Shown piece after piece: positions 23,369-58,742 of a stretch of DNA of 64,000 nt. Positions within the stretch are counted from its first letter, which is position 1, and each line of letters starts with the position of its first letter. Made by a program: the position numbers and the translations under genes. Source of the stretch: a virus (taxonomy: Duplodnaviria > Heunggongvirae > Uroviricota > Caudoviricetes); IMG/VR virus record IMGVR_UViG_3300021467_000082; one strand, written 5' to 3'. Under the pieces are notes generated by a model. It was not told the origin of the DNA, did not search any database, and was given only the letters and a program-made list of their open reading frames with translations.

Positions 23369-24871
23369 TTAGATTTCTTCACCAGTTCTTGGATCTATAA
23401 TTATATATTTCTCCAATGTCCTATCCATCACCGCAATAGGAGATAAATCCTCTCCGGAGAAAATACTTGCTAGAATTGATGGGCTAAACCCAGACACCAA
23501 AGCTGTTTTCGTCTTATAAGCTAATGCTGGTGAACCAGCATAACCAGCTGTATTCCAATAGACTATCTTTGGAGGAATATAGCCAGCTTCTTCAAATTTC
23601 GCTAAACACCTCTCGACCGGTGTACGCCCTTTTTCAATTCTAACAGGGACGTATGCAGCAGCCGTGAATTGCATATCAGATATTATTAATAGTGTAGTAG
23701 GCATTTGTTCTTGTTTCAAATTGAAAAATTTGGCGACTTTCAATATGGACATTAATGCTTTATCAATTCTAGTAGCTCCAACCGCGCCATCAAAAATCGC
23801 TTCATTTCTCACCGCTTGTGCGAATGTCATGCCTGACCAATCTTTAAACTCACTTTCACTACAGAAAGCTATGAATTTTCTATAAAATGGATTATCTTTG
23901 CCGATTTTATCTGAACAATATAGTGCCATGCCAATGGAAACATGTACCGCTTCTACAGACCCACCAATTATAGATCCCATTGATGCCGACGTATCTGCTA
24001 TGACAATTATCTTTTCATTGGTGCCCTCTAAAAAATTTGGTAACGCTTCAAATTGGGCATTAGCTATTTCATCATCACCGTGCATAACAGTCCTTACACA
24101 ATCATGCGGAAATAGCGCATCAGAATGTACTTTTGCCTCACCCTTTACAAGCGCTTCTTTGTATTTCTCAAATCTTTCAGCATCATGTCTATTAAAAGCG
24201 TTGGTATAACGTGCCATTGCTACAGAAGGCACGGTTTCATAATTTATTTCTTTCCACATGTTATGGCACATTTTGTGCTCAACTATATGGTCCTTTCTTA
24301 TATCGGCCAAGAACCGTCTAAAATTCGCTATTGTCATTCCCAAGGCCTTTCTAAGTGGAGCATACTCTCGTTTTGCCCATTTCGCAGCTAATACCGTTTT
24401 AGATTTCAAAGCGTTGGCCCATAATTCTACCGCAGCCCTTTCTGCTTTTGTATTAAATAATGCTTTAAGATCGTCCCATCTACCAACAACAGGCAACCAT
24501 CCGATATTCGCAGTAATCCATTCTGGTGCATTATCTCCTAACCAGTTATAAATGGACCTGGCTCCGCTGCGATTGCCAGCCCCTCCTCTACAATCGCGTA
24601 GCCACAACAATAGTTTCATTGATGTCACAGGATCTACTACCCATACTTTTTGGAATAATCCCAAAGCAGATTCTTCTTGGCCATAAAAACTTCGTCTGTT
24701 TTCGAATAAAGACCCAGCTTTACTGAAAAATTCTATTGCGTGATCCATACTAAATTCATACTGCAAAGCACCTTCGTTTGTCCTTTTCATATTAAATCCT
24801 CCTTTCAGGCTGATATTTTGGAGGCCAGCTGTTGGTTTGCTGTAATCAGCCTTTCCATAATTATAGCACAA
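23369..24871 (-). CDS. vWA-domain protein with a long N-terminal helical domain; possibly TROVE/Ro60-like
   Basis: C-terminal MIDAS IIVIADTSASMGS with a classic vWA fold; size and architecture (about 300-aa N-domain plus vWA) fit Ro60/Rsr; RNA-repair genes nearby. Confidence 0.55.
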   Translation of the reverse strand: MCYNYGKADYSKPTAGLQNISLKGGFNMKRTNEGALQYEFSMDHAIEFFSKAGSLFENRRSFYGQEESALGLFQKVWVVDPVTSMKLLLWLRDCRGGAGNRSGARSIYNWLGDNAPEWITANIGWLPVVGRWDDLKALFNTKAERAAVELWANALKSKTVLAAKWAKREYAPLRKALGMTIANFRRFLADIRKDHIVEHKMCHNMWKEINYETVPSVAMARYTNAFNRHDAERFEKYKEALVKGEAKVHSDALFPHDCVRTVMHGDDEIANAQFEALPNFLEGTNEKIIVIADTSASMGSIIGGSVEAVHVSIGMALYCSDKIGKDNPFYRKFIAFCSESEFKDWSGMTFAQAVRNEAIFDGAVGATRIDKALMSILKVAKFFNLKQEQMPTTLLIISDMQFTAAAYVPVRIEKGRTPVERCLAKFEEAGYIPPKIVYWNTAGYAGSPALAYKTKTALVSGFSPSILASIFSGEDLSPIAVMDRTLEKYIIIDPRTGEEI

Positions 24872-24895: not shown

Positions 24896-27800
24896 TTAAC
24901 ATCCTATTGCATTTTGTTGATTTGGAACAACCAGTTTATCAATATAATCGGATAACAATCTATACACATCTCTCATTTTCGTCGTTGTTAGAATATCCTT
25001 AACCTTCATCTTCTCGGCTTTGAGCCGCTCTAGCTTGTCTTCTATACTCTCAGTTTGTGTTTGCAGCAATCTTTTCAACATAAAGCTTGGCAGATCAGCT
25101 GCGCTGTCTTGCAGATGATCCAACAATCCAAATGGGCCAAGGCTAGCTCTAGTTGCAAAATAAATTCTATTTCTTTTTCTCACTATGAAGTTAATTATTT
25201 TACTTCCTCCTCTGGCCTTTGCTCTAGCATGAAATTCTTTTAGATTCTGTATACCCAGCTTTGCCGCTTCAGATTTAATCAAATTACACAACAACTCGCT
25301 AGGACGCCTGTCAAATCCCAGACTGACCATGGCATCTACGTCAGCTACACATATTGCATCAGTAGCTTCTTCTTGCAGAGATTTGATTCCATGCTTCTGC
25401 TTAAAAACAGTATTGCCAAGAAAATCCAGCAACAGCTCTAGATGAGCATGTTCTTCAGTTTCAGAATATGGTACATTTCTTTCTACTATTCTCATTAGAT
25501 TATATGCCAACGCAATTACTGGTCCAGTATGACTTTTAACACCAGTTGCTTTTCGTACCAACTCTGCATGTTCTTCATTAGTCGGTTTTGGAAAATAGCA
25601 TATATTGAAATCATCAAACGTCATTTCCTGTATCCTTGGAACTTTCTTACTATTCATTTTATTTATAGCATCAATACATACTTTATTTGGATTATGAAAC
25701 TCCTTTCTCAAAGCTTCTCTTGCCTCTGCAGTATGAAACGATGCCAAGAACAAAGTATCTCCATCAAAATCTAAACTTAAACTTACCAGACTATTTCCAC
25801 TTACTCGAATAACATATCTACACAGTGGATCATCGGTTATTTGCACTTTCTGGGGCCTAATAGACATAAATCCCAAGCAGGGAAATCTTTCTACCAATAC
25901 AATATCCCCAGTCTTCACGTTCAATTGCTGCGCCATATCTCTATGAATCTCAATCGTATTTGGCGGTAGATTATCAGCCAGCGCAGCTACTCCATGCGCA
26001 GAATAAGGATACCTTATAGCCATTCCATATGTGCTCAATTCTCCTCTCTTTGTTCCCATGCTCCTGGCAACTACCCTAAAATACTGCGAAACAGCCCTCA
26101 TAAGTTCATTTTGATTGATTATACTTTTGTCCTCTACAAATTCATGGGTTAGTTGAACAATCCTATTTACCAAAATTCCTACTTGGCTTAGTCCCCACTT
26201 TCCAGATGGATGCCGCCAGCATCTGCGCAGTAGAGCATTTGGAATAAATATTTGATTATATCGATAGACATCATATGTATTTGTATCAACATCATCATCT
26301 GGCAATCCCATAGAAAAATCTTCTTTATCCTGTTTATTAACAACAGCTTGAAAATAACAAGGCAGCCGCATTATAAACCCATCAGCAAAAAATTCTTCAT
26401 CTACAATTGTTCCTTTTATTTCATCAATTGTATGAAGAAAACCTCGGCGCAAATCAACGAATCTAATATCTTCAGCATCAATAATTGGATAGTTAGTGTC
26501 TACTTCTCCTTTAGCAGAATGTAGAATCCTAATTTCGTCTTTAATAATTTCTACTCCTTGTGCATGAGACATTACTTCTTTTATTATAGGGTTGCCAGGA
26601 CCGAACCTAGTTACTAGCGCTTTAATTTCAACATGACTAAATTTCAACCCAGAAGTTCGCAGCTCTCTATTATTCGTAATCCATGCCTTCTTATCGTCCC
26701 ATATTTGATCTTCTGGATCTTTGGTTACGCCCCAAAACATCTTACCTACAACTGCCTGGAATTCTCCACAATATGTTCTAATCATCCAAGAACCATCTTC
26801 TGGAAATCCCTTGGCTTTTAACGCAGCCTTAATTTTACCTTTAGTAACTATATATTCATCGTCTATAACTATTGGATCATCGCCTTCATTCAGATTATTA
26901 GCGAGCATTTCCAATAGTTGGCCAAAATTCTTTCTTTTATTAATAGACGTTCCAGATATGATAACATCGATAGGCACTTCCTCACCGGTTTTTGGATTAA
27001 TGGCTACACCAAGATCCATAAACTTAACAATGCCTTTATTTGCGTGCAGATTGGAAAATTTACTACCGTCTTTCAAAAACCTCTTTCCTTCAACAGTGAT
27101 AATCGTTGCTTTAATTGGCATATTATCCAATTCAACCACAACTCCATTAATGGTCAAGATTTTACCCTCATCACAGCGAAGATCCATTATAACTGGCTTG
27201 CCATCCGGAGAGAAACCTAACTTATCTCCGAATCTTATATTGTCGCCTTCCTCAACTAGGATCTTATCGCCATATATTGTAAACTTCTTATTTACTGTAT
27301 GCGATAGACTCAATAGTCGTTTATCAACCAAAATCTGATCTTCAAAAGTCAAAGGCGTATCCAAAATTGCAGTCGTAAGATTCCAACCCCTTCTTTCAAA
27401 CCCCTTGTCTATAAGTTTCTGCATACTCTTGGTTCTTATCCTAGGCAGCTCATCGCCTTGCATACACAGAGTGGAATATAGATTTCTTTGTGGATTGTGG
27501 AACATTCCAAATGGGGTTATCCTCCGCATATCTAGATCCAGCAGATAATTCTTATCAGCTAATACACCGTCGCTTAAGCCTATTGCAGTCCAGCCAAACT
27601 TTTGATAATATTTTCTATTTTTTTCTACTTGATACTCCAGCCTTTTATTTGGATCTTGAAGTCTATTAAATTCAGGATCTATTATGATGATCCTATGATT
27701 CATGGCCCATGTATTCATGTCAGTTTCATGAATTGGCATTGTATTTACTATTTCATCTATCAATCTCTGAGTACTCATTACCATATAACTGACTTGATTA

Positions 27801-28174
27801 TTCTTGAAGGACCTTGCAATTTTCGCTACCATTGGGGTTCCACTTTCAATATGTGGAAAGATTACATTTACATCGTCCAATAGTAGTTTTTCAATAACTT
27901 GCAAATAAGACAATTCTTCTTGCTTCTCTTCTAGCCAATACCTAGATACTGCTCTCTTAATCCCATTTCTAATTATGAATACCAGGCCATTTTCTATTAC
28001 AGGGAGTGGTATTTCCAAAGCTTTGCTTATTTCTGCATTTTCAAATATAAACCATAAACTATGCTCTACAATTTTAGTTTTTATGTTAGCCGTTACTTTT
28101 GCAAAAGTTTTGTTTCTGTTAAACTCATTCTTCACCCTTTCGGCCAAGATTATGGCCTCATCCATCGGCTCCAT
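24896..28174 (-). CDS. multisubunit RNA polymerase subunit: beta C-terminal half fused to beta-prime N-terminal half
   Basis: Beta motifs SKFSNLHANKGIV (GNKGV), SINKRKNFGQLLE (PSRMNxGQ-like), HVEIKALVTRFG (GEMEVWAL-like), followed by the beta-prime catalytic SLDFDGDTLF (NADFDGD). Confidence 0.8.
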   Translation of the reverse strand: MEPMDEAIILAERVKNEFNRNKTFAKVTANIKTKIVEHSLWFIFENAEISKALEIPLPVIENGLVFIIRNGIKRAVSRYWLEEKQEELSYLQVIEKLLLDDVNVIFPHIESGTPMVAKIARSFKNNQVSYMVMSTQRLIDEIVNTMPIHETDMNTWAMNHRIIIIDPEFNRLQDPNKRLEYQVEKNRKYYQKFGWTAIGLSDGVLADKNYLLDLDMRRITPFGMFHNPQRNLYSTLCMQGDELPRIRTKSMQKLIDKGFERRGWNLTTAILDTPLTFEDQILVDKRLLSLSHTVNKKFTIYGDKILVEEGDNIRFGDKLGFSPDGKPVIMDLRCDEGKILTINGVVVELDNMPIKATIITVEGKRFLKDGSKFSNLHANKGIVKFMDLGVAINPKTGEEVPIDVIISGTSINKRKNFGQLLEMLANNLNEGDDPIVIDDEYIVTKGKIKAALKAKGFPEDGSWMIRTYCGEFQAVVGKMFWGVTKDPEDQIWDDKKAWITNNRELRTSGLKFSHVEIKALVTRFGPGNPIIKEVMSHAQGVEIIKDEIRILHSAKGEVDTNYPIIDAEDIRFVDLRRGFLHTIDEIKGTIVDEEFFADGFIMRLPCYFQAVVNKQDKEDFSMGLPDDDVDTNTYDVYRYNQIFIPNALLRRCWRHPSGKWGLSQVGILVNRIVQLTHEFVEDKSIINQNELMRAVSQYFRVVARSMGTKRGELSTYGMAIRYPYSAHGVAALADNLPPNTIEIHRDMAQQLNVKTGDIVLVERFPCLGFMSIRPQKVQITDDPLCRYVIRVSGNSLVSLSLDFDGDTLFLASFHTAEAREALRKEFHNPNKVCIDAINKMNSKKVPRIQEMTFDDFNICYFPKPTNEEHAELVRKATGVKSHTGPVIALAYNLMRIVERNVPYSETEEHAHLELLLDFLGNTVFKQKHGIKSLQEEATDAICVADVDAMVSLGFDRRPSELLCNLIKSEAAKLGIQNLKEFHARAKARGGSKIINFIVRKRNRIYFATRASLGPFGLLDHLQDSAADLPSFMLKRLLQTQTESIEDKLERLKAEKMKVKDILTTTKMRDVYRLLSDYIDKLVVPNQQNAIGC

Positions 28175-30553: not shown

Positions 30554-31019
30554 ACACCTTTTTGCAATCTATAGGAATTGTGGTAGCAGTAATTTGAATG
30601 CTAGGAGTTAGCGGCGCTCCTAATATAATCGCAAAATCATCTATCGCAAAATCGTCTCCAATCATATTTTCTATTTCCTCTGTTAACTCTTCTACAGTGT
30701 CATACGGTGTGCAATCTACCGTGTTTCCGAACCCTTCACTAAGTAAATATAGGCCCATTTTGCTGAACTTAAACGGTATCTCATATGGTAATTCCTTAGG
30801 ATCTAAAACTAGGCCATAAAAAATAGATGTTGGATCATCTAAAGAGAAAATAAGATTATCAAATTCACTTTGAGGCATTTTCCTAAGTTCGCCATTAATT
30901 TCCGCTTTTGTAGTGGATGCTATAAATAAGCCTGGCGTGCTAACTACATAGACATTAGTTCCAATATAATCTTTGAATTGACTTATAGATCTAATAAGAG
31001 CCATAACTCGCCTCCACAA
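30531..31019 (-). CDS. hypothetical protein
   Basis: ORF track, 162 aa. Confidence 0.45.
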   Translation of the reverse strand: MWRRVMALIRSISQFKDYIGTNVYVVSTPGLFIASTTKAEINGELRKMPQSEFDNLIFSLDDPTSIFYGLVLDPKELPYEIPFKFSKMGLYLLSEGFGNTVDCTPYDTVEELTEEIENMIGDDFAIDDFAIILGAPLTPSIQITATTIPIDCKKVYGEEEDG

Positions 31020-31539
31020 TATCTTTATTATATGTAAGGAATATATTTAATAAAAATTTGAACGCTGGCGAATATTTGTTTGGATTATCAGCGATATCTT
31101 CTATAAGTTCGCCTAACGGTAGAATTATAATACCATCAAGCTCTTCCTCATTGATTGTAATGACTTCCTTGGTCGGATCTAGCAAGTACGAATATAATTT
31201 TACAAACTCGTTATTAGTTACACCACAAGCACTGACATATGCTATTTCCTCAAGCTCCTCTGATTCAACATCCAGCCCAAGCTCTTCCTTTGTTTCCCTA
31301 ATAGCTGCTTCGAGATATGACTCGCCGTATCTTACGTGACCTGATACTGACGAGCTCAATAACCCACCATTCTCTGTGTGTTTGGCTTTTTGTTGAACAA
31401 TAAAATATCCGCCAAACACCTCTATGAAAACATGGACAGCCCTATGGAAAAATCCGTTCTCATGTAAATAATCTTTCCCATATACTATACGTAAGGGAAC
31501 ATCATGTTCATCAACTACCCAAAAAATTTCGTCATGCAT
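30991..31539 (-). CDS. Nudix hydrolase
   Basis: Nudix box GHVRYGESYLEAAIRETKEELGL. Confidence 0.8.
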   Translation of the reverse strand: MHDEIFWVVDEHDVPLRIVYGKDYLHENGFFHRAVHVFIEVFGGYFIVQQKAKHTENGGLLSSSVSGHVRYGESYLEAAIRETKEELGLDVESEELEEIAYVSACGVTNNEFVKLYSYLLDPTKEVITINEEELDGIIILPLGELIEDIADNPNKYSPAFKFLLNIFLTYNKDIVEASYGSY

Positions 31540-31990
31540 TTTGTGCCCCCAGAACCTTGCTGTTATATAATATTCTTTCTATAATCCTATGCTGCTGAGT
31601 TGTCGACAATTCACTACCTATCAATACTGCAAAATTCTCAATATCTTCGTTAAGACTTTGCATTTGCTCTTCTATATATCCTACACAACCATCCATTGTT
31701 TCAAAATCTGCAAAATCATAATCATCTGCGATTACGTAAGCCACTTCGTCCATATCTAAATCATATGGCAACTCTTCAGCTTTGTAGGCATATCCTCTTA
31801 ATAACATGGTTTTTGTAAGACTTAAGCGAGACTGAAGGTTATGACTCCGTACATATTTTATAATGTTTAAGATAGTAGTAGACGCTACATACTCGATTAT
31901 TGAGTCAGTTACGTCAAATAGCAAGAAATAGACTTCTTCGCCTTCAAACTCTCGCAAGGCGTGCACAGTGGTAGCAACCTTATCTTTCAT
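31532..31990 (-). CDS. hypothetical protein
   Basis: ORF track, 152 aa. Confidence 0.45.
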   Translation of the reverse strand: MKDKVATTVHALREFEGEEVYFLLFDVTDSIIEYVASTTILNIIKYVRSHNLQSRLSLTKTMLLRGYAYKAEELPYDLDMDEVAYVIADDYDFADFETMDGCVGYIEEQMQSLNEDIENFAVLIGSELSTTQQHRIIERILYNSKVLGAQNA

Positions 31991-32747
31991 CGTTTCCCCC
32001 TACTAATTCTACATCTTCAGCATAATCTACTCTTTCATGGTAATTACTAGCAACATCTGCTATAATTGCTTCTTGAATAGATTTTAAGTTACCCAATACC
32101 ACAGTTACATTGTCAAATTGACCATCTAAATGCAGTTTATTATAAATATTAGACACTATGGCTCGTGGATCATGCTTTGCTTTGGAATCTCTATATATAG
32201 CTCTAGAAGCAGCTTCTACTTGATCACAAAACATTAGAATTAAAGATTCCAAAGTATTCGGACGTTGAGTCTTATATCTAAACTCATCTATTCGATCAAT
32301 CTCCACTTTTTCAGCTATTGACTTCAACACACATGTACCATGATGCTGGCTGGCTATTTTAATTACCTCCATAGGAAAATCGTTTGCTACCAAAATTGCT
32401 ACCGTATCAGATACATGTCTTGTTATTAATTGGTAGCTAATTTCCGGTGTTAACTCATCATGTATGTTTTTGCCTTCTCTTTGATTTTCAGTAAATATTT
32501 CCGGGTTCCACATTTTACCTATGTCATGATACATCGCCGCTATCTTTAATGTCTCCGATTCCATTCCAACACTAGCACAAACATTCTCTATCATTCCTAC
32601 TAATGATTGTGCATGCTTATAGCTGCCTGGCGCTTTCTCTCTGAATTCTTTTAGCAGCGGAAAGTTAGAATCCAAATAACCTAATTCTTTTTCTTCTTTC
32701 TTCACTGCTTCTTTGGTTTCCTCAATCAACTCGACATTCTCCGACAT
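31980..32747 (-). CDS. HD/HDIG-domain phosphohydrolase
   Basis: H...AAMYHDIGK...D motif arrangement. Confidence 0.7.
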   Translation of the reverse strand: MSENVELIEETKEAVKKEEKELGYLDSNFPLLKEFREKAPGSYKHAQSLVGMIENVCASVGMESETLKIAAMYHDIGKMWNPEIFTENQREGKNIHDELTPEISYQLITRHVSDTVAILVANDFPMEVIKIASQHHGTCVLKSIAEKVEIDRIDEFRYKTQRPNTLESLILMFCDQVEAASRAIYRDSKAKHDPRAIVSNIYNKLHLDGQFDNVTVVLGNLKSIQEAIIADVASNYHERVDYAEDVELVGGNDER

Positions 32748-33457
32748 TTGCTGCCTCCAATTTTATCCTTATATAAGGTAACGAATTTTTCAAAATCATA
32801 TTTCAGAAAATCTCTCATTATGCATTGATAAGCAACTACACCAGGATCTGTTATTCTCATTATTTCGGGATGAAATTGTACGCCAAAACCATTAATATTG
32901 GTAAAGATAGCGCCTTCAACTTCTTGCACATCATCATCTACCTGTCTACAGTTCTCATCGAAATAAAGCCGGGCAATGCTTGGCTCAGTCCAAATTAATG
33001 GTATTGCTTTATTATTTACCTTTACCAACTGATGGTGTGTGCTAGATACCAAGTATTGACTCTTAAACGGTGCAAAGTACGCATTGTGATATGGAGGATG
33101 CCTCGCTATATGTTGATACATCTTACCACCAGCCATCACATTGATAAATTGGAATCCTCGGCAAATGCCACTTACTTTAACACTATGTTTTAGACATACA
33201 TCGAAGATTTCTTGTTCAAGGCGGTCTCGTTTATGGTTAACATAACTCATACCGTCAATCTTCCCGCCATAGAATCCTGGAGATACATCTTCTCCACCAG
33301 TAAACAATACCATATCTATATCTGTATAGTGCATTTCGATAATATCTGTTATCCGTTTAGCGTCATGTATGATATCCTCAGTAGAGTACAATATTCTAAC
33401 AAAACCTTGAATTGGAAATGAATAGACTGAAGGCCCTACCACTACGATGTTATGCAT
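32726..33457 (-). CDS. class-I glutamine amidotransferase-like protein (peptidase C26/gamma-glutamyl hydrolase-like)
   Basis: Nucleophile elbow GICRGFQ and VQFHPE (His-Glu of the triad). Confidence 0.7.
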   Translation of the reverse strand: MHNIVVVGPSVYSFPIQGFVRILYSTEDIIHDAKRITDIIEMHYTDIDMVLFTGGEDVSPGFYGGKIDGMSYVNHKRDRLEQEIFDVCLKHSVKVSGICRGFQFINVMAGGKMYQHIARHPPYHNAYFAPFKSQYLVSSTHHQLVKVNNKAIPLIWTEPSIARLYFDENCRQVDDDVQEVEGAIFTNINGFGVQFHPEIMRITDPGVVAYQCIMRDFLKYDFEKFVTLYKDKIGGSKCRRMSS

Positions 33458-34396: not shown

Positions 34397-35677
34397 TTAA
34401 CCTAGTGATCTAACAAGCGATTCCTCATAACGCAAAGCTTTCTTAACACCAAGCAATCGCGTCAAACGTCTCCTTGTACCAGATAGAAAACTATTGCTAT
34501 TTCCCCAATTGTAATAGTACGTAGATCTATTACCATGTAATGCCCATTCTTCATACATATTGCTGCTTATAAGTTCATCTGTTCCATTCATTATGAGATA
34601 ATCAAAAAGAGTTATTGGATTTAAACCGACATAATCATCTGAATACACATGAGGTTTTCTAGAATAGTTAGAATACAAAAAATTTGTCGATTTACTAAGA
34701 GAACCTATCAATGCTCTGACCGAACGCCAAACTTTCTTAGCATATACAACGTCTGATTCATTTATTGCGCCCCTTACATCTTCTTCACTTATATTAATAG
34801 TTTGCAATAATTTTTCATAACCGTACTTCCTATACGCAAAAGCCGTCCCTAAGCTGGCCAGGCCTAACACCATAGAGACAAAAATTGGAGATTTAAGCCA
34901 CCAACAGCTTAGACTACGATATTCAATTCCATATGGCGTAGGCCTAAAACACCCGGCTTTGCCATACTTGGATCTTCGCCTTTTAGCGGCTGGCGAATTA
35001 TCAAATGGTAACGTCAATAAATTAACGAAGAAATCCAGAGACTTAACCCATCTAATATGCTCTTTTTCACTTGTGATCATCTCACGTTGCCTAGAATAGT
35101 AGGGATCAGCGAGTCCGCCACCATATTCAATACCTACTAAACCTATATGAATGTGGCCTCCCGCGTATCTATATGGATGTTTTTCCGCGTTCATCTCTGG
35201 CGTATTCACAGTGAGCGTATAGGCATTGTAATCTGGCATACACCCAAAGATCTTTGCGTCGTCATGGGCTTGATCCAATATTCGCTTTTGTACTTTAACA
35301 GACGGCTTTAGCGTAATTCTATTTCCTTCTATCATATCAGCAGCTGTAGTTAAAATACGTTTTGTTCTCATGATAAAGTACACTCTACAATAAGTCGGCG
35401 TGATCCCAAATTCAGCTTGAATGCCATCAAAATATAATTTACCAATCGCCTCTCCTACACCTAACCACCTGTCATCAGGTTCTTGCTTTATAATAAGTGG
35501 TTTAGTTTTATGGGGAAAAAATTTATCTGAGTTTAGAATTGTGCCTTTCTTATTTGCTACGAAAAACTCAGGGTCCGCCCCAAAATAGAGAGTCGGTTTT
35601 AGCCCACAGCTTAATTTTCTTTTCATACCGGTTGTTATTTCAGACAACTTAATCCGCTTCATCACTGGACCTCCCAT
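34397..35677 (-). CDS. amidoligase paralog C
   Basis: GADPEFFVAN, GGHIHIGLVG. Confidence 0.6.
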   Translation of the reverse strand: MGGPVMKRIKLSEITTGMKRKLSCGLKPTLYFGADPEFFVANKKGTILNSDKFFPHKTKPLIIKQEPDDRWLGVGEAIGKLYFDGIQAEFGITPTYCRVYFIMRTKRILTTAADMIEGNRITLKPSVKVQKRILDQAHDDAKIFGCMPDYNAYTLTVNTPEMNAEKHPYRYAGGHIHIGLVGIEYGGGLADPYYSRQREMITSEKEHIRWVKSLDFFVNLLTLPFDNSPAAKRRRSKYGKAGCFRPTPYGIEYRSLSCWWLKSPIFVSMVLGLASLGTAFAYRKYGYEKLLQTINISEEDVRGAINESDVVYAKKVWRSVRALIGSLSKSTNFLYSNYSRKPHVYSDDYVGLNPITLFDYLIMNGTDELISSNMYEEWALHGNRSTYYYNWGNSNSFLSGTRRRLTRLLGVKKALRYEESLVRSLG

Positions 35678-36395
35678 TTATATATAAGTATTTTTCCACA
35701 ATCCCTCTGTACTTTTCTGTTGTAAAATCAGCTTCGTAATCAACGGCAAAATATGACACGTCATTAATGTTTAACTCTTTATATATGAATGTACCATTTT
35801 TATAAACAGCATCTAACTCATGCCAATCTATTCCTCTCTCTTGCAACATATTAAGCATATCAGAGACCTTTTTATTTTGGAGTTCTTTTTGAGAGAAAAC
35901 AGACCTGGCTAACATATGAACAGAATTTCTTATCCAGTCTTTTTGCCGCCATATAAAATAATTACAGACCTCCTCTTTTGGAATGTTAAACGCACGGCAA
36001 TCGAATACTGCATAATTAATTTCAAACATTTGTGATAGCCACCTAGAAAAGTTTACAGACATCATAGCAGCGGCAACAGATACGAGTTTTTGTAGGTTAT
36101 AATCGAACCAAGCTGAAGTGTTCAATTGATCGAAATCTGTCAGTAGAATTGACACTTCATCTGATTGAATATAGGCACATTTCGCACCTTGTATTTCCTC
36201 ACATACGTTTCCAGCAGCATAAACCATTCCCTTTATAAATGTTTCATCAAAAGGTTTCTGCATACACTTACATAATGTGTGGAAAGCTTTTCCATCTAAT
36301 CGTAAAATAACTGGAGTTCTACGAGTCAGTTTTACTCTGTATCTGCTCTCGTAGTTTTCTTTCATCCTATCTCCAATAGACGTTCTATTCTTCAT
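35649..36395 (-). CDS. Thg1-like protein (tRNA-His guanylyltransferase/3'-5' polymerase family)
   Basis: ILRLDGKAFH and IQSDEVSILL match Thg1 VVRLDGRNFH / GQSDEYSFVF; 29-nt overlap with the upstream amidoligase. Confidence 0.75.
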   Translation of the reverse strand: MKNRTSIGDRMKENYESRYRVKLTRRTPVILRLDGKAFHTLCKCMQKPFDETFIKGMVYAAGNVCEEIQGAKCAYIQSDEVSILLTDFDQLNTSAWFDYNLQKLVSVAAAMMSVNFSRWLSQMFEINYAVFDCRAFNIPKEEVCNYFIWRQKDWIRNSVHMLARSVFSQKELQNKKVSDMLNMLQERGIDWHELDAVYKNGTFIYKELNINDVSYFAVDYEADFTTEKYRGIVEKYLYINGRSSDEAD

Positions 36396-36480
36396 TTTTC
36401 TCTCCTATTTTTCAAGGACCGCTATGTTTACTATTAGATCTTAAGCCTTTATAAGATTTTTATTCTTCATAGCACCCTCC

Positions 36481-37200
36481 TCAATTAATATTTATATTTC
36501 TCTCTAATTGTTGTAGATTATAATATCTTATCAAGATATTAGTAACATATCTTAGTTCATAACTTTTACCTTTTGGCTTTGTCAATCCGGTGTGATACCT
36601 ATTAAGAGCCACAACTATATTTCCTTTTGCCTCTTTAATATACTTACTTAATATTTTCACACCGCATTTTATATTATTATCTATCCAAAACAATTTATTT
36701 TTCACGCTTACTCCATTATCTTTCAAAATAGGATGTTCTTTCCACGTAGAAAATCTTACCTGCATCAAACCTACAGCTCCAGCTTTGCTTTGTACCAACG
36801 GCCTAAAGTTCGATTCTTCATAAATTAGGGAGACCACTAATAGTGGATCAACATTTTGCTCTTCACATACTTCCAATATAGTCTTTGCTATCAGTTTACG
36901 TAGAGGTTCAGATAATTTGGGCTGTAAATGTTCAATTATACCACTTAATTGATCCACACTGATATCGCATTTATTATCATTAACCTCTATAACCTTAACA
37001 GGTTGCACAGATTGCTTCGAGCTCAAACATTCCTGCAATTTGTCATTTAACTCTTCGTTGATATTAGTAAGTTGTTGGACAGTTTTACTATATTTTGTAA
37101 TATTTGTTACAGCAGTATACCATGCAAAACCTTGTGCAATAATTAAAACTAAAACAAAAGCGACTAATATATACTTATACAATTTTGACATTTTTATCAC
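36481..37200 (-). CDS. lytic transglycosylase (SLT domain) with an N-terminal membrane anchor
   Basis: LLVVSLIYEESNFRPLVQSKAGAVGLMQV (ES...AxGLMQ) plus an N-terminal TM helix. Confidence 0.8.
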   Translation of the reverse strand: MIKMSKLYKYILVAFVLVLIIAQGFAWYTAVTNITKYSKTVQQLTNINEELNDKLQECLSSKQSVQPVKVIEVNDNKCDISVDQLSGIIEHLQPKLSEPLRKLIAKTILEVCEEQNVDPLLVVSLIYEESNFRPLVQSKAGAVGLMQVRFSTWKEHPILKDNGVSVKNKLFWIDNNIKCGVKILSKYIKEAKGNIVVALNRYHTGLTKPKGKSYELRYVTNILIRYYNLQQLERNININ

Positions 37201-37205
37201 CTTTA

Positions 37206-37451
37206 TTATGGATCTACTCTCTCCACTACCTTATCTATGAAATTTTGTAATGCTCGTGTAGCGTGAATAGAATCCACTACTATATTCTTTTTAGTGGAAA
37301 ATAGAGGTACTTTCGTTTTCTTGTTATATTTTACTGCAACCACTTTGTTTTCATCAGAGTCATGTTTAAATACTGCAACGATATCATTGTCAGATATTGA
37401 AAGAGCCTCAAAATCAAAACGTGATAGATCAACAGTGTTAATGGTTTCCAT
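37206..37451 (-). CDS. hypothetical small protein
   Basis: ORF track, 81 aa. Confidence 0.4.
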   Translation of the reverse strand: METINTVDLSRFDFEALSISDNDIVAVFKHDSDENKVVAVKYNKKTKVPLFSTKKNIVVDSIHATRALQNFIDKVVERVDP

Positions 37452-38829
37452 TTTGTTCCTCCTTTTCCAATTCGTTATAAGCTTGTAGTATTAAGTCATG
37501 GAGTTGACTTTTGTAATCAGAAATAGATTCATCCATTATTTTATCAGCAACCATTCTTTTTATTTTACCAACTAGAGGAGATGGTTTGATATTGCATAAT
37601 TTCATTATCAAATTACCATCTATTAAATCGACCAACGGTCTGTTATATGCTAATTGTTTCTGCCTTTCAATAATCTCATTTATTTTTTCTAATTTTCGAT
37701 CAAAGCTACCATAATGCATGAATTCTTCGCCTCGCGAAAACTCATCTGCCCACGCCACCTCTACTAATGTATCAAAGTATGGACTTTCTGCTATTCTTGC
37801 TATTTTAGATGGGCGCATATTTAATATATGATTGAACTTCATGTGATTTCTTACGGCGAATAATATACGATCTTTTTCCATATTTGAGAATTTTAATCGA
37901 GTTAATATATGCTCGGCTATATCTGTACCTGCCACCTCATGTCTATAATAGTGAACACCCTTCTCATCTTCGCTAAAGGTAACCCCTTTACCAATATCAT
38001 GAAGCAATATTGCCATCAGCGTAGTGAAATCATTTGTTCTAGCTATCTCCAAGCACTTTATAACATGATCAAATACCGTTGTTCCTTCTGGATGATGTCT
38101 CATATTATGTTTGTAGTATTTTAAAATAGACACTTCAGGAATGATTTTGGACAATAGACCAAAATAATCGCTCAATTTAATAAAATTAGTAAATTCTTTT
38201 ACTCCATATTTGCTGGCCTTATAAAACTCTCCCCTAATTCTTTCCGGGGCTATTTTAATTATCTTACTATTATATCTCCTTATGGCCATTCTAGTTTTAT
38301 TTTCGATGTTGAATCCAAGCGCTGCAAACCTTATTGCTCTAAGCATTCTTAAATAATCTTCTGAGAATCTCTCTGACGGATCTCCTACCGTTCTTAGTAT
38401 CTTATTTTCAAGATCTTCCTTACCACCGACCTTATCTATAATATTGCCATGTTTATCCATAGCCATGGCATTTATAGTGAAGTCCCGACGCATAATATCT
38501 TCATCTAACGATACGCCTATCTTAACAGACTCTGGCCTCCTCCCATCCAGATATTTTCCATCAGATCTAAACTGTGCGATTTCAAAATACATGTCTTTAT
38601 AACATATTAAGCATATGCCAAAATCTTTTGATTGGCCTATATTATAAGTATCGAAAATCTCTTCCAAAATTTTGAGCGGGCAATTTGTAGTGATATCAAC
38701 GTCTTCAGCTCTGCGCCCGCTCAAAATATCCCTTACAGTGCCGCCTACTATATACGCTTCATATCCTAATGCTTCTATTTCACTTAGCAGCTTCATAGCT
38801 ACAAGTACATTTTTAGACAACATTGCCAT
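37438..38829 (-). CDS. cca: CCA-adding enzyme (tRNA nucleotidyltransferase, class II with HD domain)
   Basis: Head IVGGTVRDILSG...EDVDITT, neck RLRAIRFAA, HD motif LLHDIGK. Confidence 0.85.
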   Translation of the reverse strand: MAMLSKNVLVAMKLLSEIEALGYEAYIVGGTVRDILSGRRAEDVDITTNCPLKILEEIFDTYNIGQSKDFGICLICYKDMYFEIAQFRSDGKYLDGRRPESVKIGVSLDEDIMRRDFTINAMAMDKHGNIIDKVGGKEDLENKILRTVGDPSERFSEDYLRMLRAIRFAALGFNIENKTRMAIRRYNSKIIKIAPERIRGEFYKASKYGVKEFTNFIKLSDYFGLLSKIIPEVSILKYYKHNMRHHPEGTTVFDHVIKCLEIARTNDFTTLMAILLHDIGKGVTFSEDEKGVHYYRHEVAGTDIAEHILTRLKFSNMEKDRILFAVRNHMKFNHILNMRPSKIARIAESPYFDTLVEVAWADEFSRGEEFMHYGSFDRKLEKINEIIERQKQLAYNRPLVDLIDGNLIMKLCNIKPSPLVGKIKRMVADKIMDESISDYKSQLHDLILQAYNELEKEEQNGNH

Positions 38830-38842
38830 ACCCCAATTATAC

Positions 38843-40177
38843 TTAGTCTTTCAAATTTATAATAGGCTTTATTACATCAACAATTTCAGCTGTAGGCGCA
38901 ATGGCTTCTTTAATGATGTTTGAATCTTTGTATGCGTTTTTAGTTTCATCAGCAGGTATTGAAGAAGCAAATATACCTGCCGCTCTCATTCTTTCAGCCG
39001 CCTTTTCTACATCCACTAATTCTTTTGCCTTGTTTCGAGATAACATACGCCCAGCACCATGAGGAGCCGAATAATTCCATTCTTGGTTAGCTAACCCCTT
39101 GCATATTAATGTTCCATCTTCCATGTTAAGTGGAATTAGGATGAATTTAGTATATGCTGATATTGCGCCTTTACGAATTATAAAATCGGAAAAATCGATG
39201 TAATTATGAACAGATTCTATTTCATAAGGTTGAGGATCATGTAGACCCATAACGTTTTCAGATACGATCTTACCAATCAACCTTCGATTTTCCTTGGCAT
39301 ATACAGTAGTGAAAATCATGTCATGCAAATAACCATATGCGTCTTCCCCTTCCAAATACTCAAGGCCTTTAGCAACTTTGTTATCCATCTCCAAATAAGC
39401 TCTCAACTGTTTTATGGCTTCTGGTATTAACTTACGCTGGGCTTTTGTAGTGTGTGTACGTTTAATTTCTTCTAGCCCCGCTTTAAATTTTTCTTGCTTC
39501 TTCTCATTCATCTTCCTAATTGGAGTACCCTGCCAATATTCACATATCTTTTTACCGAAATTTCTAGATCCACTATGGATTGTCAGCCAAAGAGATCCAG
39601 TGCTATCTCTTCCTACCTCAATGAAATGGTTTCCGCCTCCAACGGTGCCTAAACTATTAACTGCTCGCCCAGCGTCGATTCCAATGATCTCACATTTTGA
39701 TATGAACCAATCGTAATCATAGGAAATTGGTTCCACATTCGTAGAAAAAGTCTTATTAAATTTTGACCAAAAGGTTCTGGCAATCTTTCTAACTTCTTCC
39801 CAGGGGAAATCTTTCTCCATATTAATTATTGGATTTTCATGTATTTCGTATCCGAAGGGCACTTTTGCTCTGATAGAAATGTCCAACTGCTCTAAATTTT
39901 TTATATCTCTTATAGGAAGTTTTCTCGCATAGACACCGCACCCAATATCTACTCCAACAACATTCGGCACTAGTTTGGTCGTCAGAGGCATAGTAAATCC
40001 AATAACAGCCCCTTTTCCAGCATGACAGTCCGGCATAATTGCCACTGGGTTGGTAAAGGCAGGATTATTAAGAAAGGACACTATCTGTGATAATGTAGTT
40101 TCATCTACATTGTCTATCATAATTTTGGCCTTAGTATATTTACCTACCATTTCAAACACGGCACTGTCCTCCATCAA
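38843..40177 (-). CDS. rtcB: RtcB RNA ligase (3'-phosphate/5'-OH)
   Basis: MPDCHAGKGAVIGF, GGGNHFIEV, HSGSRNFG, SAPHGAGRM. Confidence 0.9.
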   Translation of the reverse strand: MMEDSAVFEMVGKYTKAKIMIDNVDETTLSQIVSFLNNPAFTNPVAIMPDCHAGKGAVIGFTMPLTTKLVPNVVGVDIGCGVYARKLPIRDIKNLEQLDISIRAKVPFGYEIHENPIINMEKDFPWEEVRKIARTFWSKFNKTFSTNVEPISYDYDWFISKCEIIGIDAGRAVNSLGTVGGGNHFIEVGRDSTGSLWLTIHSGSRNFGKKICEYWQGTPIRKMNEKKQEKFKAGLEEIKRTHTTKAQRKLIPEAIKQLRAYLEMDNKVAKGLEYLEGEDAYGYLHDMIFTTVYAKENRRLIGKIVSENVMGLHDPQPYEIESVHNYIDFSDFIIRKGAISAYTKFILIPLNMEDGTLICKGLANQEWNYSAPHGAGRMLSRNKAKELVDVEKAAERMRAAGIFASSIPADETKNAYKDSNIIKEAIAPTAEIVDVIKPIINLKD

Positions 40178-40196: not shown

Positions 40197-40919
40197 TCAT
40201 AGCTTCCTCATTTTTTTCTTCTTTATTAATTCTACCAATACATCGCCATGGCAGGGCAAAGGTTTACAATAACAACCAAGCCTCTTTCCTTCTAATTCAT
40301 CTAATGCGGCCAACAAATCAGGTCTAGTTAACACGTAATTTCTGTATTTTTCTATTACCTCTTCACGTGTCCCATCTATACCAATTCTAAATGGGTTTCC
40401 CCATTTGCTTCCCCTTCCAATATAGACATCGTAGGGTTCATGTTTGAGGTTGACTACCCTTGTCTTTGGTTTGTATTCTGGTATTATAGTATTTACTTTG
40501 GTTATTTTATCATTTACGACAAGAATTATTATGATTGGAATATTATATTTTTTGATGGCAAGATCTATCATATGCTTTGTACCTGTGGATTTACCATCCC
40601 ATATGGCAACTACTACGTCTTTTTGTGTCAACATTTTAATCATTTCTTCGTTTCGTTTCATACCGGCTAAGGCGTTATATTCTTTGCCAAATCTATTGCA
40701 CTTTCTCACAACTGGAGGACTCACGTCCTCCCACCTTGCCTGCACCTCAAACAATTTAACCTCATTAGCCAATGCCCACTTTCGGGCCAGCGAATCAACT
40801 CCGCCGGCCCCACCTTCAATTACTGCTGTGGCTGTACTTGAAAACTTGTCAAGTATCTGCTTGACTATATCATAGTTAGTAATACTCCTACTTCCAGATA
40901 CTAATATCTTCATTTTCAT
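40197..40919 (-). CDS. two-domain protein: N-terminal SLOG/DUF2493-like (VSGSRS...EGGAGGVDSLA) plus C-terminal DUF4326-like (GSKWGNPF...CYCKP.PCHGDVL); paralog of 50951-51670
   Basis: Shared architecture and motifs between the two ORFs. Confidence 0.5.
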   Translation of the reverse strand: MKMKILVSGSRSITNYDIVKQILDKFSSTATAVIEGGAGGVDSLARKWALANEVKLFEVQARWEDVSPPVVRKCNRFGKEYNALAGMKRNEEMIKMLTQKDVVVAIWDGKSTGTKHMIDLAIKKYNIPIIIILVVNDKITKVNTIIPEYKPKTRVVNLKHEPYDVYIGRGSKWGNPFRIGIDGTREEVIEKYRNYVLTRPDLLAALDELEGKRLGCYCKPLPCHGDVLVELIKKKKMRKL

Positions 40920-42106: not shown

Positions 42107-42499
42107 CTATGTATTTGCTACGGCCTCACGCACCTTCCAATCTTTGATTACTGGGTATAGCCTTGATACTCGGTCGAAATAAACATCATTCATTACATAT
42201 ATCAAAACTTTTTTACCATCAATTTTTATGTATTTACGTTTGTAGTACCCATACTGCACGCCTTCCAATTGATCCAAGAGTTTTAACAGCTCTTTTTCAT
42301 TACCTTTAAAATCCAAGAGTTCAACGACAATTTCATCGTTTTCATCTCCCGTTTCAAAGGCTGCTGGATAGTCGCCCAGATCGAACATTTTGAAGCCTCT
42401 TAGAGTTTTTATTTTTCTACTCGTAATTTTTCCAAACTCTTTAAAAGCACCTGCTCTACTTTCTCCTTCTCTTAACGTACCATATACAGCAATACGCAT
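42107..42499 (-). CDS. gamma-glutamyl cyclotransferase-like (AIG2/GGCT fold) protein
   Basis: N-terminal IAVYGTLREGE (YGTL..G motif) and size about 130 aa. Confidence 0.6.
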   Translation of the reverse strand: MRIAVYGTLREGESRAGAFKEFGKITSRKIKTLRGFKMFDLGDYPAAFETGDENDEIVVELLDFKGNEKELLKLLDQLEGVQYGYYKRKYIKIDGKKVLIYVMNDVYFDRVSRLYPVIKDWKVREAVANT

Positions 42500-45212: not shown

Positions 45213-45498
45213 CTGCTACTCCATCATTCTCTAAAGAGCCATTAAAATAAGTTTATGGAATAACTAATTTGACCAGCCTTCCTTCACATTTATGACAAAT
45301 ATAGTTTTCTAGTTGATCATAAAGATACGATGCCCTATGCTTGGCCTTAACAGGACTTATGACTACATCTCCCTTACCATATTATTTCTCTCCCAATTCC
45401 TGAATTCTTCAAGTTCTAATTTCTTTCTGAAATGTCTTATACACCTCCTACCTGATATATGCGAACTATGAATGAGCACAAATAGGAGGCCTACCTTT

Positions 45499-48070: not shown

Positions 48071-48949
48071 TTACTTAGAATTTACAAACGGCGTTACATT
48101 CTGGCCTTCAGTTACAATAACCTTGTCTCCTTCGCCTGCTCGTTCATATAACTTCAGTCTAGCCTCAATCTCTCTCATCTTCAGGTATTTATCATTCAAG
48201 GCGTTACCCAAAATCTTGATATAAGCGGCCTCTGCTTCGGCTTCAGCTACGCGGACTATTTTCATTTTTTGTGCAATTTTTAACCTATTTTCAGCCTTTA
48301 ACAACTCCATTGCCTGTTTAGCTTTCTCTTCTTGGATTTCTATCTCTCTTCTTCGCTTCTTTTCAACCGCTTTTGTTATCACATCTGGGTAATCGAAGTT
48401 AGAAGTGGCCAACATCCGCAATTCCATAGGAGTATTTCCTAACGCCTTTTCTAACCGAATTTGAATGGCTTTTGTAATTGCTTCCCTATTATCCCTTATC
48501 TGAGTGGTTTCATATTTGGAAACTATTGTTCTCGCAATAGAACGTGCTACTGGTTTTACATAAGTGTTGTACAAAACGGTATAAGGAAGTTTACCAACTT
48601 TTCCATCGTATTTAATTCTAGCGCCCTGTAAGCTTAACAAGTCATATAGGTCTTTATCAGTCTTAATCCTAGGTCTTACGCGAACTTTCAAATCAAATTT
48701 GAAATTTAAATCGTCTTTACACAACACGCTCAATCTTTCAACACCCACATAGTCATTGATAGGGACGAGAATAAGCTTATCCCTACCCCAGCACGCATGT
48801 CTGCCCGGCTGTAACGCCTTACCATCGAGTCCACTTGGTTGTAGCCTCATCCCTACATAACCAGGTGGAACTTCGCCACTACAGCCAATCATGGAAAACG
48901 CAAACACTACCAGAATCAAACTGAGCAATTTTCCTTTTAAATTTTTCAT
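48071..48949 (-). CDS. SPFH/band-7 domain protein with a lipoprotein-like signal
   Basis: Signal with Cys (FSMIGCSG); band-7-like core and C-terminal coiled coil EKKRRREIEIQEEKAKQAMELLKAE. Confidence 0.65.
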   Translation of the reverse strand: MKNLKGKLLSLILVVFAFSMIGCSGEVPPGYVGMRLQPSGLDGKALQPGRHACWGRDKLILVPINDYVGVERLSVLCKDDLNFKFDLKVRVRPRIKTDKDLYDLLSLQGARIKYDGKVGKLPYTVLYNTYVKPVARSIARTIVSKYETTQIRDNREAITKAIQIRLEKALGNTPMELRMLATSNFDYPDVITKAVEKKRRREIEIQEEKAKQAMELLKAENRLKIAQKMKIVRVAEAEAEAAYIKILGNALNDKYLKMREIEARLKLYERAGEGDKVIVTEGQNVTPFVNSK

Positions 48950-50567: not shown

Positions 50568-50950
50568 TATTTACCCCCATTCATGGTACAAGTGATAATA
50601 CCGTGTTATGTGTCTGAAAATCACTTTGGTTCTCCCCGTATATAATCACGCACTTCCATTAATATTTTACCTAGTTTGTTACAGCCTCCCATGTAAACTG
50701 CTTGATAGTATTCATGTTCTGACCCTTTCAATTGTGTAATATACAGTTAAGATGCTTTTAAGTTATTCAAAAGCTTGACAGCTTCAAATAAACTTTCTTA
50801 CCCTTTCTATTTTTTATAAGTATGCTATCATTAGTGCTATTGCTATAGCCATACACACAGATGCCGTAGTCTCTGTATTCCACCTTTTCATTCTCTTACC
50901 CCTTTTAGGATTGAATGGTTCTGGATCAATATTTAAACTGATTTAGTTTC

Positions 50951-51670
50951 TTATTTTAATCTATTTTCTAATAATTCTACTAACACATCACCATGACATG
51001 GCTCAGGCTTGCAATAACAACCTAAACGTTTGCCTCTTAACTCCTCCAAATCATTCAGCAAATCCGGCCTACTCATTATATATTGTTTATACTTCTCTAT
51101 CACCTCCTCGCGGGTACCATCTACTCCGATTTTAAACGGGTTTCCCCATTTACTACCTTGGCCAATATAAACATCATATTTTTCATGGCGTAAATTTACT
51201 ACTTTGGCTTCGCTGGCTGGTTTCATATTTATCACGTCTATCTTATCTCCGTTTACCAATATCAAAATTACATTTCGTCCATAACTTTTAGCTGTTTCAA
51301 TCATGTGGTTTGTACCTGGTGAATGCCCGTCCCAAAATGCTAAAAGAGTATCGCCTAATTTTACCATTTCTTCATTTCTTTTGAAGCCGGCCAAGGCGTT
51401 GTATTCCTTGCCGTATCTATTATATTTCTTCTTGACTGGCGGGCTCATATTATCCCACTTAGCAAGCACTTCGATACATTTTATATTATTTTCCAAAGCC
51501 CACTTTTTTGCCAATGAGTCTACTCCTCTAGCGCCTCCTTCTATTATACATTCTATATCTCTCATACTGTTTAATACTGCCGATACTAATTCATAATTTG
51601 TTATAGATCTACTACCGGACACTATTAATTTCATAATCACCTCATCTAATGGTGCCCAGCGGGCAGCCAA
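50951..51670 (-). CDS. SLOG/DUF2493-like plus DUF4326-like two-domain protein (paralog of 40197-40919)
   Basis: IVSGSRSITNY...IEGGARGVDSLAKKWA; GSKWGNPF...CYCKPEPCHGDVL. Confidence 0.5.
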   Translation of the reverse strand: MAARWAPLDEVIMKLIVSGSRSITNYELVSAVLNSMRDIECIIEGGARGVDSLAKKWALENNIKCIEVLAKWDNMSPPVKKKYNRYGKEYNALAGFKRNEEMVKLGDTLLAFWDGHSPGTNHMIETAKSYGRNVILILVNGDKIDVINMKPASEAKVVNLRHEKYDVYIGQGSKWGNPFKIGVDGTREEVIEKYKQYIMSRPDLLNDLEELRGKRLGCYCKPEPCHGDVLVELLENRLK

Positions 51671-58652: not shown

Positions 58653-58742
58653 TTGGAACCTCCTTTTAATGTAATGTTTGTTTATGGTTGAAATGCTTTT
58701 CTTTTGGCTACAATGTTTGTTGTAGCACGCCTAAACTCCTCA

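Follow-up and report, generated by a model that had tools for sequence, protein, structure and literature searches.

Does a cluster of genes for RNA end-processing enzymes in an uncultured phage amount to a system for repairing tRNA? The question is raised by a 64,000-nucleotide stretch of DNA (hereafter the window) from the IMG/VR record IMGVR_UViG_3300021467_000082, assigned to Caudoviricetes, in which an RtcB-family ligase, a class-II CCA-adding enzyme (CCA1) and a Thg1-like protein (TLP) are encoded within about 4.5 kb (positions 35649-40177, minus strand). A preliminary description of the window had proposed that these genes, together with several dispersed ones, form a complete tRNA-repair system. 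The three families, their active sites and a plausible tRNA link stood up to scrutiny; the inclusion of an HD phosphohydrolase, a Nudix hydrolase and a second CCA-like protein (CCA2), and the pairing of RtcB with a Ro60-like protein, did not. We consider it moderately probable (about 0.6) that the cluster is an accessory module for tRNA end repair or maintenance, put together gene by gene around a conserved CCA-adding enzyme in an uncultured lineage of phages. That tRNA is the substrate and counter-defence the purpose we infer from genomic association and the published framework of phage RNA repair (PMC7824862, section 3.4.9), and cooperation of the three enzymes would be a further step of the same kind.

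Three RNA-end enzymes and their active sites

The window is AT-rich (its first 58 kb or so have about 35% GC) and carries nearly all of its long open reading frames (ORFs) on the minus strand. Every gene listed in the preliminary description was recovered there. In the direction of transcription, from 40919 to 35649, the cluster reads SLOG(YAcAr)-DUF4326 fusion, RtcB, CCA1, an 81-aa ORF, an SLT lytic transglycosylase and TLP, whose 3' end and the beginning of a phiEco32-type COOH-NH2 ligase gene (34397-35677) overlap. Intergenic gaps measure 5-20 nt or are replaced by overlaps, save for 85 nt ahead of TLP. As these genes run head to tail with such short spacing, they are probably co-transcribed; a consensus scan of the stretch found no excess of promoter-like or terminator-like sites. 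Profile searches accepted RtcB, TLP and CCA1 as members of their families, and each retains its catalytic residues. Neither of the outcomes that the preliminary description had named as refuting these assignments was thus observed for the three.

The RtcB gene (38843-40177, minus strand) encodes a 3'-phosphate/5'-OH RNA ligase that matches PF01139 with 189.8 bits (cut-off 27) over model positions 1-425 of 426. Gene callers begin it at the ATG at 40174, the likely start; in an exact-protein look-up the TTG-start form had no matches and the ATG-start form matched five contigs, all from the same phage. The metal ligands and nucleophile are kept (D77/C80, H184, H201, the histidine of SVHNY and the GMP-accepting histidine of APHGAGR), and the motifs VGVDIGCGV, GGGNHFIEV, IHSGSRNFG, SVHNY and APHGAGR align to the RtcB proteins of P. 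horikoshii and T. thermophilus. Across four phage RtcBs, residues D76, C79, H183, H200 and H372 (ATG-start numbering) are invariant, and the SVHNY histidine is shifted in one. The enzyme is predicted to join 3'-phosphate or 2',3'-cyclic-phosphate ends to 5'-OH ends in a GTP- and Mn-dependent reaction. Its best NCBIfam matches are intein-containing RtcB models, and its scores fall under every NCBIfam equivalog cut-off, which marks it as a divergent subfamily. The RtcB genes of two other phages, one from a related lineage (locus L179, 4645-6631) and one from IMG/VR locus L001 (8480-10777), carry interruptions, of about 0.5 kb and about 1.2 kb respectively, near residues 115-183 and upstream of the active-site motif GGGNHF; Rfam detected no group I intron in either.

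The TLP gene (35649-36395, minus strand; PF04446, 100.5 bits) encodes a putative templated 3'-5' RNA polymerase of the bacterial tRNA 5'-end-repair type. It resembles Bacillus thuringiensis TLP (4kgk) over its full length (residues 6-241, E = 3e-54), and human Thg1 at only 2e-7. The key residues described for the B. thuringiensis enzyme are E12, R28, D30, D75 and E76, plus M158, a position at which eukaryotic Thg1 has Asn (PMC3701042). Their counterparts are all present: the carboxylates D34, D79 and E80 correspond to D30, D75 and E76, and E16, R32 and M161 to E12, R28 and M158. Judged by these residues and the overall similarity, the protein belongs to the bacterial TLP clade, not the eukaryotic Thg1 type, and differs from its B. 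thuringiensis counterpart in being phage-encoded. Bacterial TLPs repair 5'-truncated tRNAs in vitro (PMC3701042).

CCA1 (37438-38829, minus strand) is a class-II CCA-adding enzyme with a C-terminal HD domain, recognized by PolyA_pol (PF01743, 109.5 bits), PolyA_pol_RNAbd and HD, and by its similarity to CCA-adding enzymes of known structure (6ibp, E = 6.6e-50; 1miv, 4e-43). Head motifs A, B and D are intact (GGxVRD, DVD, RRDFTINA, EDxLRxLRAxRF). It shares both the head-neck-body-tail-plus-HD architecture and all motifs with the multifunctional Cca of E. coli and the Aquifex-type HD class-II enzymes; against the NCBIfam equivalog PRK13299 it scores 241.5 (cut-off 290), and is thus a family member, not an equivalog. 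The phage also encodes possible substrates. Three tRNA genes, all on the minus strand, were confirmed by ARAGORN and Rfam: tRNA-Trp with a CCA anticodon (1291-1364) and tRNA-Thr-UGU (306-381), which both encode their 3' CCA, and tRNA-Pro-UGG (987-1060), which does not. The last ends in ...CCCGA followed by ATT, and therefore needs a CCA-adding enzyme. Upstream of this tRNA region, the non-coding gap at 1923-2197 (minus strand) holds two similar long hairpins (z = -3.9); folding of two other non-coding gaps, 45213-45498 and 50568-50950, gave no signal.

Together, the three activities would cover distinct kinds of damage. RNases of the host or of competitors would cut tRNAs to leave 2',3'-cyclic-phosphate (or 3'-phosphate) and 5'-OH ends, which RtcB could reseal directly with GTP and Mn2+, sparing a separate kinase/phosphatase step. 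CCA1 would rebuild trimmed 3'-CCA ends, its HD domain perhaps first clearing blocking 3' phosphates, and would also mature the phage tRNA-Pro. TLP, for its part, would refill 5'-truncated acceptor stems, with the 3' strand as template. The chemistry assumed for each enzyme is what is known for its family (PMC3701042, PMC9304027).

A variable locus around CCA1

Five metagenome contigs, all with one and the same gene order, represent the phage itself and gave no sequence variation. Among cultured phages in INPHARED (50,697 phage records), neither megablast of the cluster nor tblastn of the RNA polymerase found a match. A scan of IMG/VR with the RtcB protein as sole query recovered one relative only; four related lineages were found through homologs of the adjacent COOH-NH2 ligase. 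The lineage of L174/L175, with an RNA polymerase 84% identical to that of the window, carries CCA1, a small ORF, SLT and the ligase, and has neither RtcB nor TLP. L176/L177 (RNA polymerase 87%) carries RtcB, a 120-aa ORF, CCA1 (69% identical), a small ORF, SLT and the ligase, again without TLP. L179 (53%) has RtcB and CCA1 (51%) upstream of the ligase and lacks TLP, and in L178 (60%) the 10 kb upstream of the ligase hold no gene with a Pfam annotation, RtcB and TLP both being absent. The series of ligase, C26 amidotransferase, HD, Nudix and then RNA polymerase genes is kept in all four.

These comparisons suggest a history for each gene. CCA1, present in three of the four lineages and with syntenic orthologs of about 70% identity in L174 and L176, is the stable element of the locus. 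Both in the window phage and in L176 and L179, two of the four relatives, RtcB occupies the variable stretch bounded by the GGACT gene and CCA1. Its identity is discordant with that of the RNA polymerase, at 40% to the close relative L176 yet 66-72% to the distant L179; it is therefore an accessory gene that has been exchanged or replaced within the lineage, probably horizontally, and the discordance combined with the shared position argues for repeated recruitment next to CCA1. TLP is missing from the corresponding site in all four relatives, which is the pattern of a recent insertion specific to the window phage; this gene lies across the CCA1-ORF-SLT block from RtcB. The gap before TLP holds a 9-codon mini-ORF (36440-36469, minus strand; MKNKNLIKA) with its own Shine-Dalgarno sequence. 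Its first nine bases (ATGAAGAAT) are identical to those of TLP, and it may have been left behind when TLP was inserted.

How unusual is such a cluster? Of the INPHARED records, 699 contain RtcB and 162 contain TLP, so three such genes within 4.5 kb are not a random draw. As a counterweight, the stretch from the GGACT gene to the amidoligase is also a variable accessory-gene region, whose content differs among all relatives. We surveyed IMG/VR by alignment scans, taking the best 80 TLP and the best 80 RtcB loci with 10-kb flanks. RtcB was found at 3 of the 80 TLP loci and a CCA enzyme at 1; at the 80 RtcB loci a CCA enzyme was found 4 times and TLP never. At two of these three TLP loci, from unrelated phages (L022 and L015), RtcB directly adjoins TLP. 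tRNA genes occur within 10 kb of 34 of the 80 RtcB loci and 22 of the 80 TLP loci, raw counts that have no matched baseline and are supportive rather than statistical, and the RtcB gene of L001 sits inside an array of at least 11 tRNA genes. The three-gene cluster is thus rare and the pairwise links recur. A connection to tRNA is plausible because of the TLP-RtcB adjacency in unrelated phages and the tRNA genes near RtcB loci.

Four observations weigh against a dedicated repair module. The close relative L174 has neither RtcB nor TLP at the locus, so the set is dispensable. Of the 160 IMG/VR loci surveyed around TLP or RtcB, not one holds the three-gene cluster, and even pairs are rare. Two genes unrelated to RNA interrupt the cluster: the SLT transglycosylase (36481-37200, minus strand; PF01464, 57.9 bits), with a hydrophobic N-terminal stretch of membrane-spanning appearance, which adjoins CCA1 in L174 and L176 too, and the 81-aa ORF between it and CCA1 (37206-37451, minus strand), which matches no Pfam or PHROG family and has orthologs of 84-90 aa at the same place in L174 and L176. 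Lastly, the substrate of an RtcB protein cannot be read from its family, since EcRtcB1 mends cleaved tRNAs and EcRtcB2 only 16S rRNA (PMC9304027), and the window protein falls below the cut-offs of all NCBIfam subfamilies.

Of the other explanations, the one that survives best is housekeeping maturation of the phage's own tRNAs, in which CCA1 adds CCA while RtcB and TLP process unusual precursors, intron-containing or 5'-mismatched. The tRNA-Pro gene without an encoded CCA fits this account, as do the joint conservation of CCA1 and a Trp/Pro/Thr(/Glu) tRNA set in the lineage and the frequent position of phage RtcB genes beside tRNA arrays. A tRNA covariance-model match in the relative L271 (5759-5941) spans 183 nt, and this gene may contain an intron. 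The window's own tRNAs argue otherwise: none of the three has an intron, two of the three encode CCA, and their acceptor stems are paired except for an A7-C66 mismatch and a G1-U72 wobble in tRNA-Trp, leaving no call for 5' rebuilding. Moreover, relatives retain the tRNAs, unlike RtcB and TLP, which belong to the variable accessory genes, and hosts with CCA-less tRNA genes are well known to own a CCA-adding enzyme already. We therefore regard maturation as unlikely, if still a credible competitor.

It is less probable still that there is no functional coupling at all, the stretch from the GGACT gene to the amidoligase being an accessory hotspot in which RtcB, TLP and the SLOG-DUF4326 fusion landed independently and act on unrelated substrates. 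The turnover of gene content described above, the interleaved SLT gene and 81-aa ORF and the absence of the full cluster from the surveyed loci would all be expected of a hotspot, and the placement of RtcB and TLP on opposite sides of the CCA1-ORF-SLT block implies separate entry events. Independent landing explains less readily why every inserted enzyme acts on RNA ends, why two different RtcB types adjoin CCA1 within the lineage, and why TLP and RtcB are again adjacent in unrelated phages. Very improbable is a non-tRNA target for RtcB (16S rRNA cut by colicin-E3-like ribotoxins, cleaved mRNA, or 5'-phosphate capping, with CCA1 and TLP acting separately), a reading prompted by the 16S rRNA specificity of EcRtcB2, by weak partial similarity to PrfH-coupled TIGR03073 and to PRK09588 and by the annotation of related phage RtcBs as 'release factor H-coupled', and opposed by a score of 83.6 bits against the RtcB2 model TIGR03073 (cut-off 271.8), by the lack of a PrfH-like gene among the window ORFs scanned or of any release-factor-like neighbour of RtcB, and by the tRNA-related neighbours of RtcB in the window and in other phages.

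The SLOG(YAcAr)-DUF4326 fusion (40197-40919, minus strand; Pfam) is the direct upstream neighbour of RtcB; its link to RNA repair is uncertain. The gene has a paralog at 50951-51670 (minus strand) and is not found at the corresponding position in L174 or L176. The DUF4326 clade is predicted to be a rhodanese-phosphatase-like domain that processes ADP-ribose-derived phosphates (PMC9503650), and the two paralogs would on that prediction suggest counter-defence against nucleotide signalling.

RNA-associated genes outside the cluster

The preliminary description had counted the HD phosphohydrolase (31980-32747, minus strand) and the Nudix hydrolase (30991-31539, minus strand) among the repair enzymes. 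Both family assignments were confirmed by Pfam; their best family matches are weak, a generic HDIG domain for the first and an IPP-isomerase-like Nudix for the second. Their place is in a separate conserved module, present in all four relatives, that comprises the COOH-NH2 ligase, a hypothetical gene, the C26 amidotransferase, HD, a further hypothetical gene and Nudix; a 152-aa ORF lies in the Nudix-HD stretch (30991-32747, minus strand). We assign the two hydrolases to this amidoligase module because it persists in L178, where CCA1, RtcB and TLP are all missing from beside it. Their candidacy as RNA end-healing or decapping enzymes was rejected on the strength of the amidoligase/C26 synteny and the weak family matches.

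A vWA protein encoded at 23369-24871 (minus strand), whose true start probably lies about 30 aa downstream, had been described as Ro60/TROVE-like. This holds at the level of fold and not as a sequence match to the Pfam TROVE family: PF05731 gave no match at E<=0.01, phmmer against the PDB returned no Ro60 at E<=10, and the families recognized are DUF2828 (104.7 bits) and DUF7788 (94.3 bits), with phrog_850 'RNA-binding protein' at 2e-92. An AlphaFold (AF2) model built from 26 homologs (predicted local distance difference test, pLDDT, 80; predicted template modelling score, pTM, 0.80) resembles an alpha-helical repeat ring joined to a vWA domain that has a MIDAS (metal-ion-dependent adhesion site), whose DxSGS motif is invariant. 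In a Foldseek search with this model the top six matches were all Ro60 over the full length (E from 1e-7 to 6e-6; next match E = 0.16). They include 1yvr (1.4e-7), 9l5y from phage phiLo in second place, 2i91, 2nvo and 1yvp, and span Xenopus Ro and Deinococcus Rsr. The modelled structure thus supports a Ro60-like architecture.

The pairing of this gene with RtcB, proposed by analogy with bacterial operons, failed. The two genes are 14 kb apart, and the Ro60-like gene is kept in a relative that has no RtcB at the syntenic site: the orthologs of the Ro60-like protein and CCA2 (P0002 and P0124) and the ligase ortholog of the locus without RtcB (P0244) each have a longest contig on record of 62,058 bp. 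The Ro60-like protein also occurs in 693 cultured phages, many of whose genera are not among the main RtcB carriers listed. What the window shares with the bacterial rtcBA and rsr-yrlA-rtcBA operons is an RtcB and a Ro60-fold protein in one genome; beyond the distance between the genes, it differs from the rsr-rtcBA operons in that its protein is of the DUF2828 type instead of Pfam TROVE and no Y RNA was detected in the window or its relatives, whether Rfam was searched at its gathering threshold or with E<=1. The same searches returned no other known ncRNA apart from tRNAs. Nor were RtcA or RtcR found among the window ORFs scanned (small ORFs in part). The Ro60 of Thermus phage phiLo is likewise a phage-encoded Ro60-fold ring with a vWA domain, and has Y-RNA-like genes (Yrl RNAs) directly upstream (PMC12135203). 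In the window, by contrast, only 24 and 32 nt separate the gene from its neighbours, which leaves no room for an RNA gene beside it.

The Ro60-like gene and CCA2 are lineage-core genes. CCA2 (6141-7511, minus strand; PolyA_pol E = 1.4e-5) had been called a second HD-domain CCA-family paralog; the HD domain is indeed intact, and CCA-adding activity is contradicted by the motifs. In its degenerate nucleotidyltransferase head DxD has become E-Y-R, RRD has become Q-T-R-I and EDxxR has become K-D-P-V-V, losses common to the 20 members of the 776-member family that were aligned with CCA1. The HD ligands H244, H265-D266, H289, H321 and D364, on the other hand, are invariant in the family alignment. 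Its structural match covers residues 143-443 only, equivalent to the body, HD and tail of 3wfo, and the loss of catalytic and templating motifs sets it outside the active nucleotidyltransferase group to which the E. coli Cca and Aquifex-type enzymes belong. With the nucleotidyltransferase motifs lost and the HD ligands kept, CCA2 is probably a phosphoesterase and not a CCA adder; the motifs would fit a scaffold that binds tRNA-shaped RNA and carries a live phosphoesterase. Genes for a sigma-70-like protein (7474-8334) and a RuvB-like AAA protein (8324-9349) always precede it, in the relatives as well, and its closest relative in IMG/VR is only 36% identical.

Directly 3' of CCA2 lies a conserved structured non-coding element of 207 nt (5934-6140, minus strand; minimum free energy -73.7 kcal/mol, z = -5.3). 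Its G-rich core motif (6034-6056), CGAGATCGNGTGGG-N3-4-GGNNGGGA, is invariant and follows CCA2 in six of seven lineage members, whose CCA2 proteins are only 45-80% identical. The corresponding elements lie at 7372-7589 in L180, 7372-7582 in L181, and near 4318, 4088 and 4537 in L268, L269 and L271. A hairpin downstream of the motif is present in five of the six motif-bearing members; its outer stem varies in sequence yet stays paired (GTCTTGCTATC, TTACTTATC, TGGTAGA), with two compensatory changes among the three closest relatives. Rfam matched the element neither here nor in relatives. The window holds a single copy of the motif, and 3.8 Mb of loci contain no further one beyond chance hits that a pattern scan had contributed; that scan, of metagenomes, returned only one true homolog and five chance hits inside GC-rich coding sequence. 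A repeated promoter was considered and rejected, given the single copy in the window and its absence from the lineage's other loci. The element could be a non-coding RNA partner of CCA2 or of the Ro60-like protein, whose gene lies 17 kb away, or a 5' leader or other cis element.

These observations allow a different, more speculative answer, which we think rather unlikely: that the lineage-core genes, and not RtcB and TLP as accessory ones, make up an RNA-handling unit that has not been described before. CCA2, with its dead head and tRNA-binding body, would apply its live HD phosphoesterase to tRNA-like 3' ends, for example to remove 2',3'-cyclic or 3'-phosphates, and the element at 5934-6140 would be its partner or substrate, possibly a Y-RNA-like RNA to which the Ro60-fold DUF2828 protein would bind as well. 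The most novel lead is nonetheless the CCA2 family with its dead head, together with the conserved element just downstream.

Several other features of the window are recorded here. An ATP-dependent ligase at 2457-3531 (minus strand) is encoded by two overlapping ORFs that lie in different frames: the first stops at the adenylation motif KNDG (..IEEKNDGV), and the remainder of the DNA_ligase_A_M domain is in the second. Scores of 46 bits for DNA_ligase_A_M and 25.4 bits for RNA_ligase (cut-off 27) indicate that it is probably a DNA ligase, and since L180 and L181 have the same two-ORF layout it may be expressed by programmed frameshift or as a split enzyme. The window also has an amidoligase set of unusual richness: three phiEco32-type COOH-NH2 ligases (11733-13049, 18222-19418 and the one adjoining TLP), a RimK-like ATP-grasp protein (10600-11736), a GNAT protein (10158-10607), class-II glutamine amidotransferases (13046-14809, 15855-16628), the C26 amidotransferase (32726-33457), weakly like gamma-glutamyl-CDP-amidate hydrolase, and a gamma-glutamyl cyclotransferase (42107-42499). 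This set suggests a peptide or nucleotide modification pathway. A 1092-aa protein (24896-28174, minus strand) combines beta-type (Rpb2_6) and beta'-type (Rpb1_2) RNA polymerase domains and is 53-87% conserved in metagenomic relatives. A Band-7/SPFH domain protein (48071-48949, minus strand) is kept in the other contigs of the same phage. Over 58001-64000 the GC content jumps to 43-45%, up from about 30-37%, and the ORFs there are nearly without family matches, apart from one weakly SSB-like protein and one PHROG 'phosphatase' (60889-61398).

Relation to known repair systems

Phage RNA-repair repertoires that include RtcB, CCA-adding enzymes, Thg1, ROT/TROVE proteins and tRNAs have been catalogued for jumbo phages as counter-defence, with Thg1 only sporadically present (PMC7824862, section 3.4.9). 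The window matches these repertoires in parts list and logic, and differs in coming from a non-jumbo phage (source contig of at least 79 kb) of an uncultured lineage and in holding the three enzymes within 4.5 kb. The anti-defence idea for such a set is therefore not new, and the cluster is an unusually compact instance of a kit that phages were already known to carry, with no claim to be a new kind of system; its value is that of a good test case, notable for its compactness and its visible assembly history. The relatives show how such a kit can be put together, with a stable CCA enzyme and swappable RtcB and TLP around it.

A test case of this kind is timely. Defences that cut or trim tRNAs (PrrC, RloC, PARIS, retron effectors, Septu, OLD) are turning up rapidly, and to our knowledge the only phage repair answer proven by experiment is the Pnkp/Rnl1 pair of T4. 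The cluster offers a small, clonable set with which phage repair of three kinds of tRNA damage (sealing, 3'-CCA and 5' end) could be tested. If the proposed role proves true, it would supply the physiological function that bacterial-type Thg1-like proteins still lack.

With T4 Pnkp/Rnl1, which is established by experiment, the cluster would share the principle of a phage-encoded enzyme set that reverses tRNA breakage. The chemistry would differ. T4 heals the ends with a kinase-phosphatase and seals 3'-OH/5'-phosphate termini by an ATP-dependent ligase, whereas the window RtcB would seal 3'-phosphate/5'-OH ends directly; no polynucleotide kinase was found among the window ORFs scanned. CCA1 and TLP would, in addition, contribute end-rebuilding functions that the T4 system does not have.

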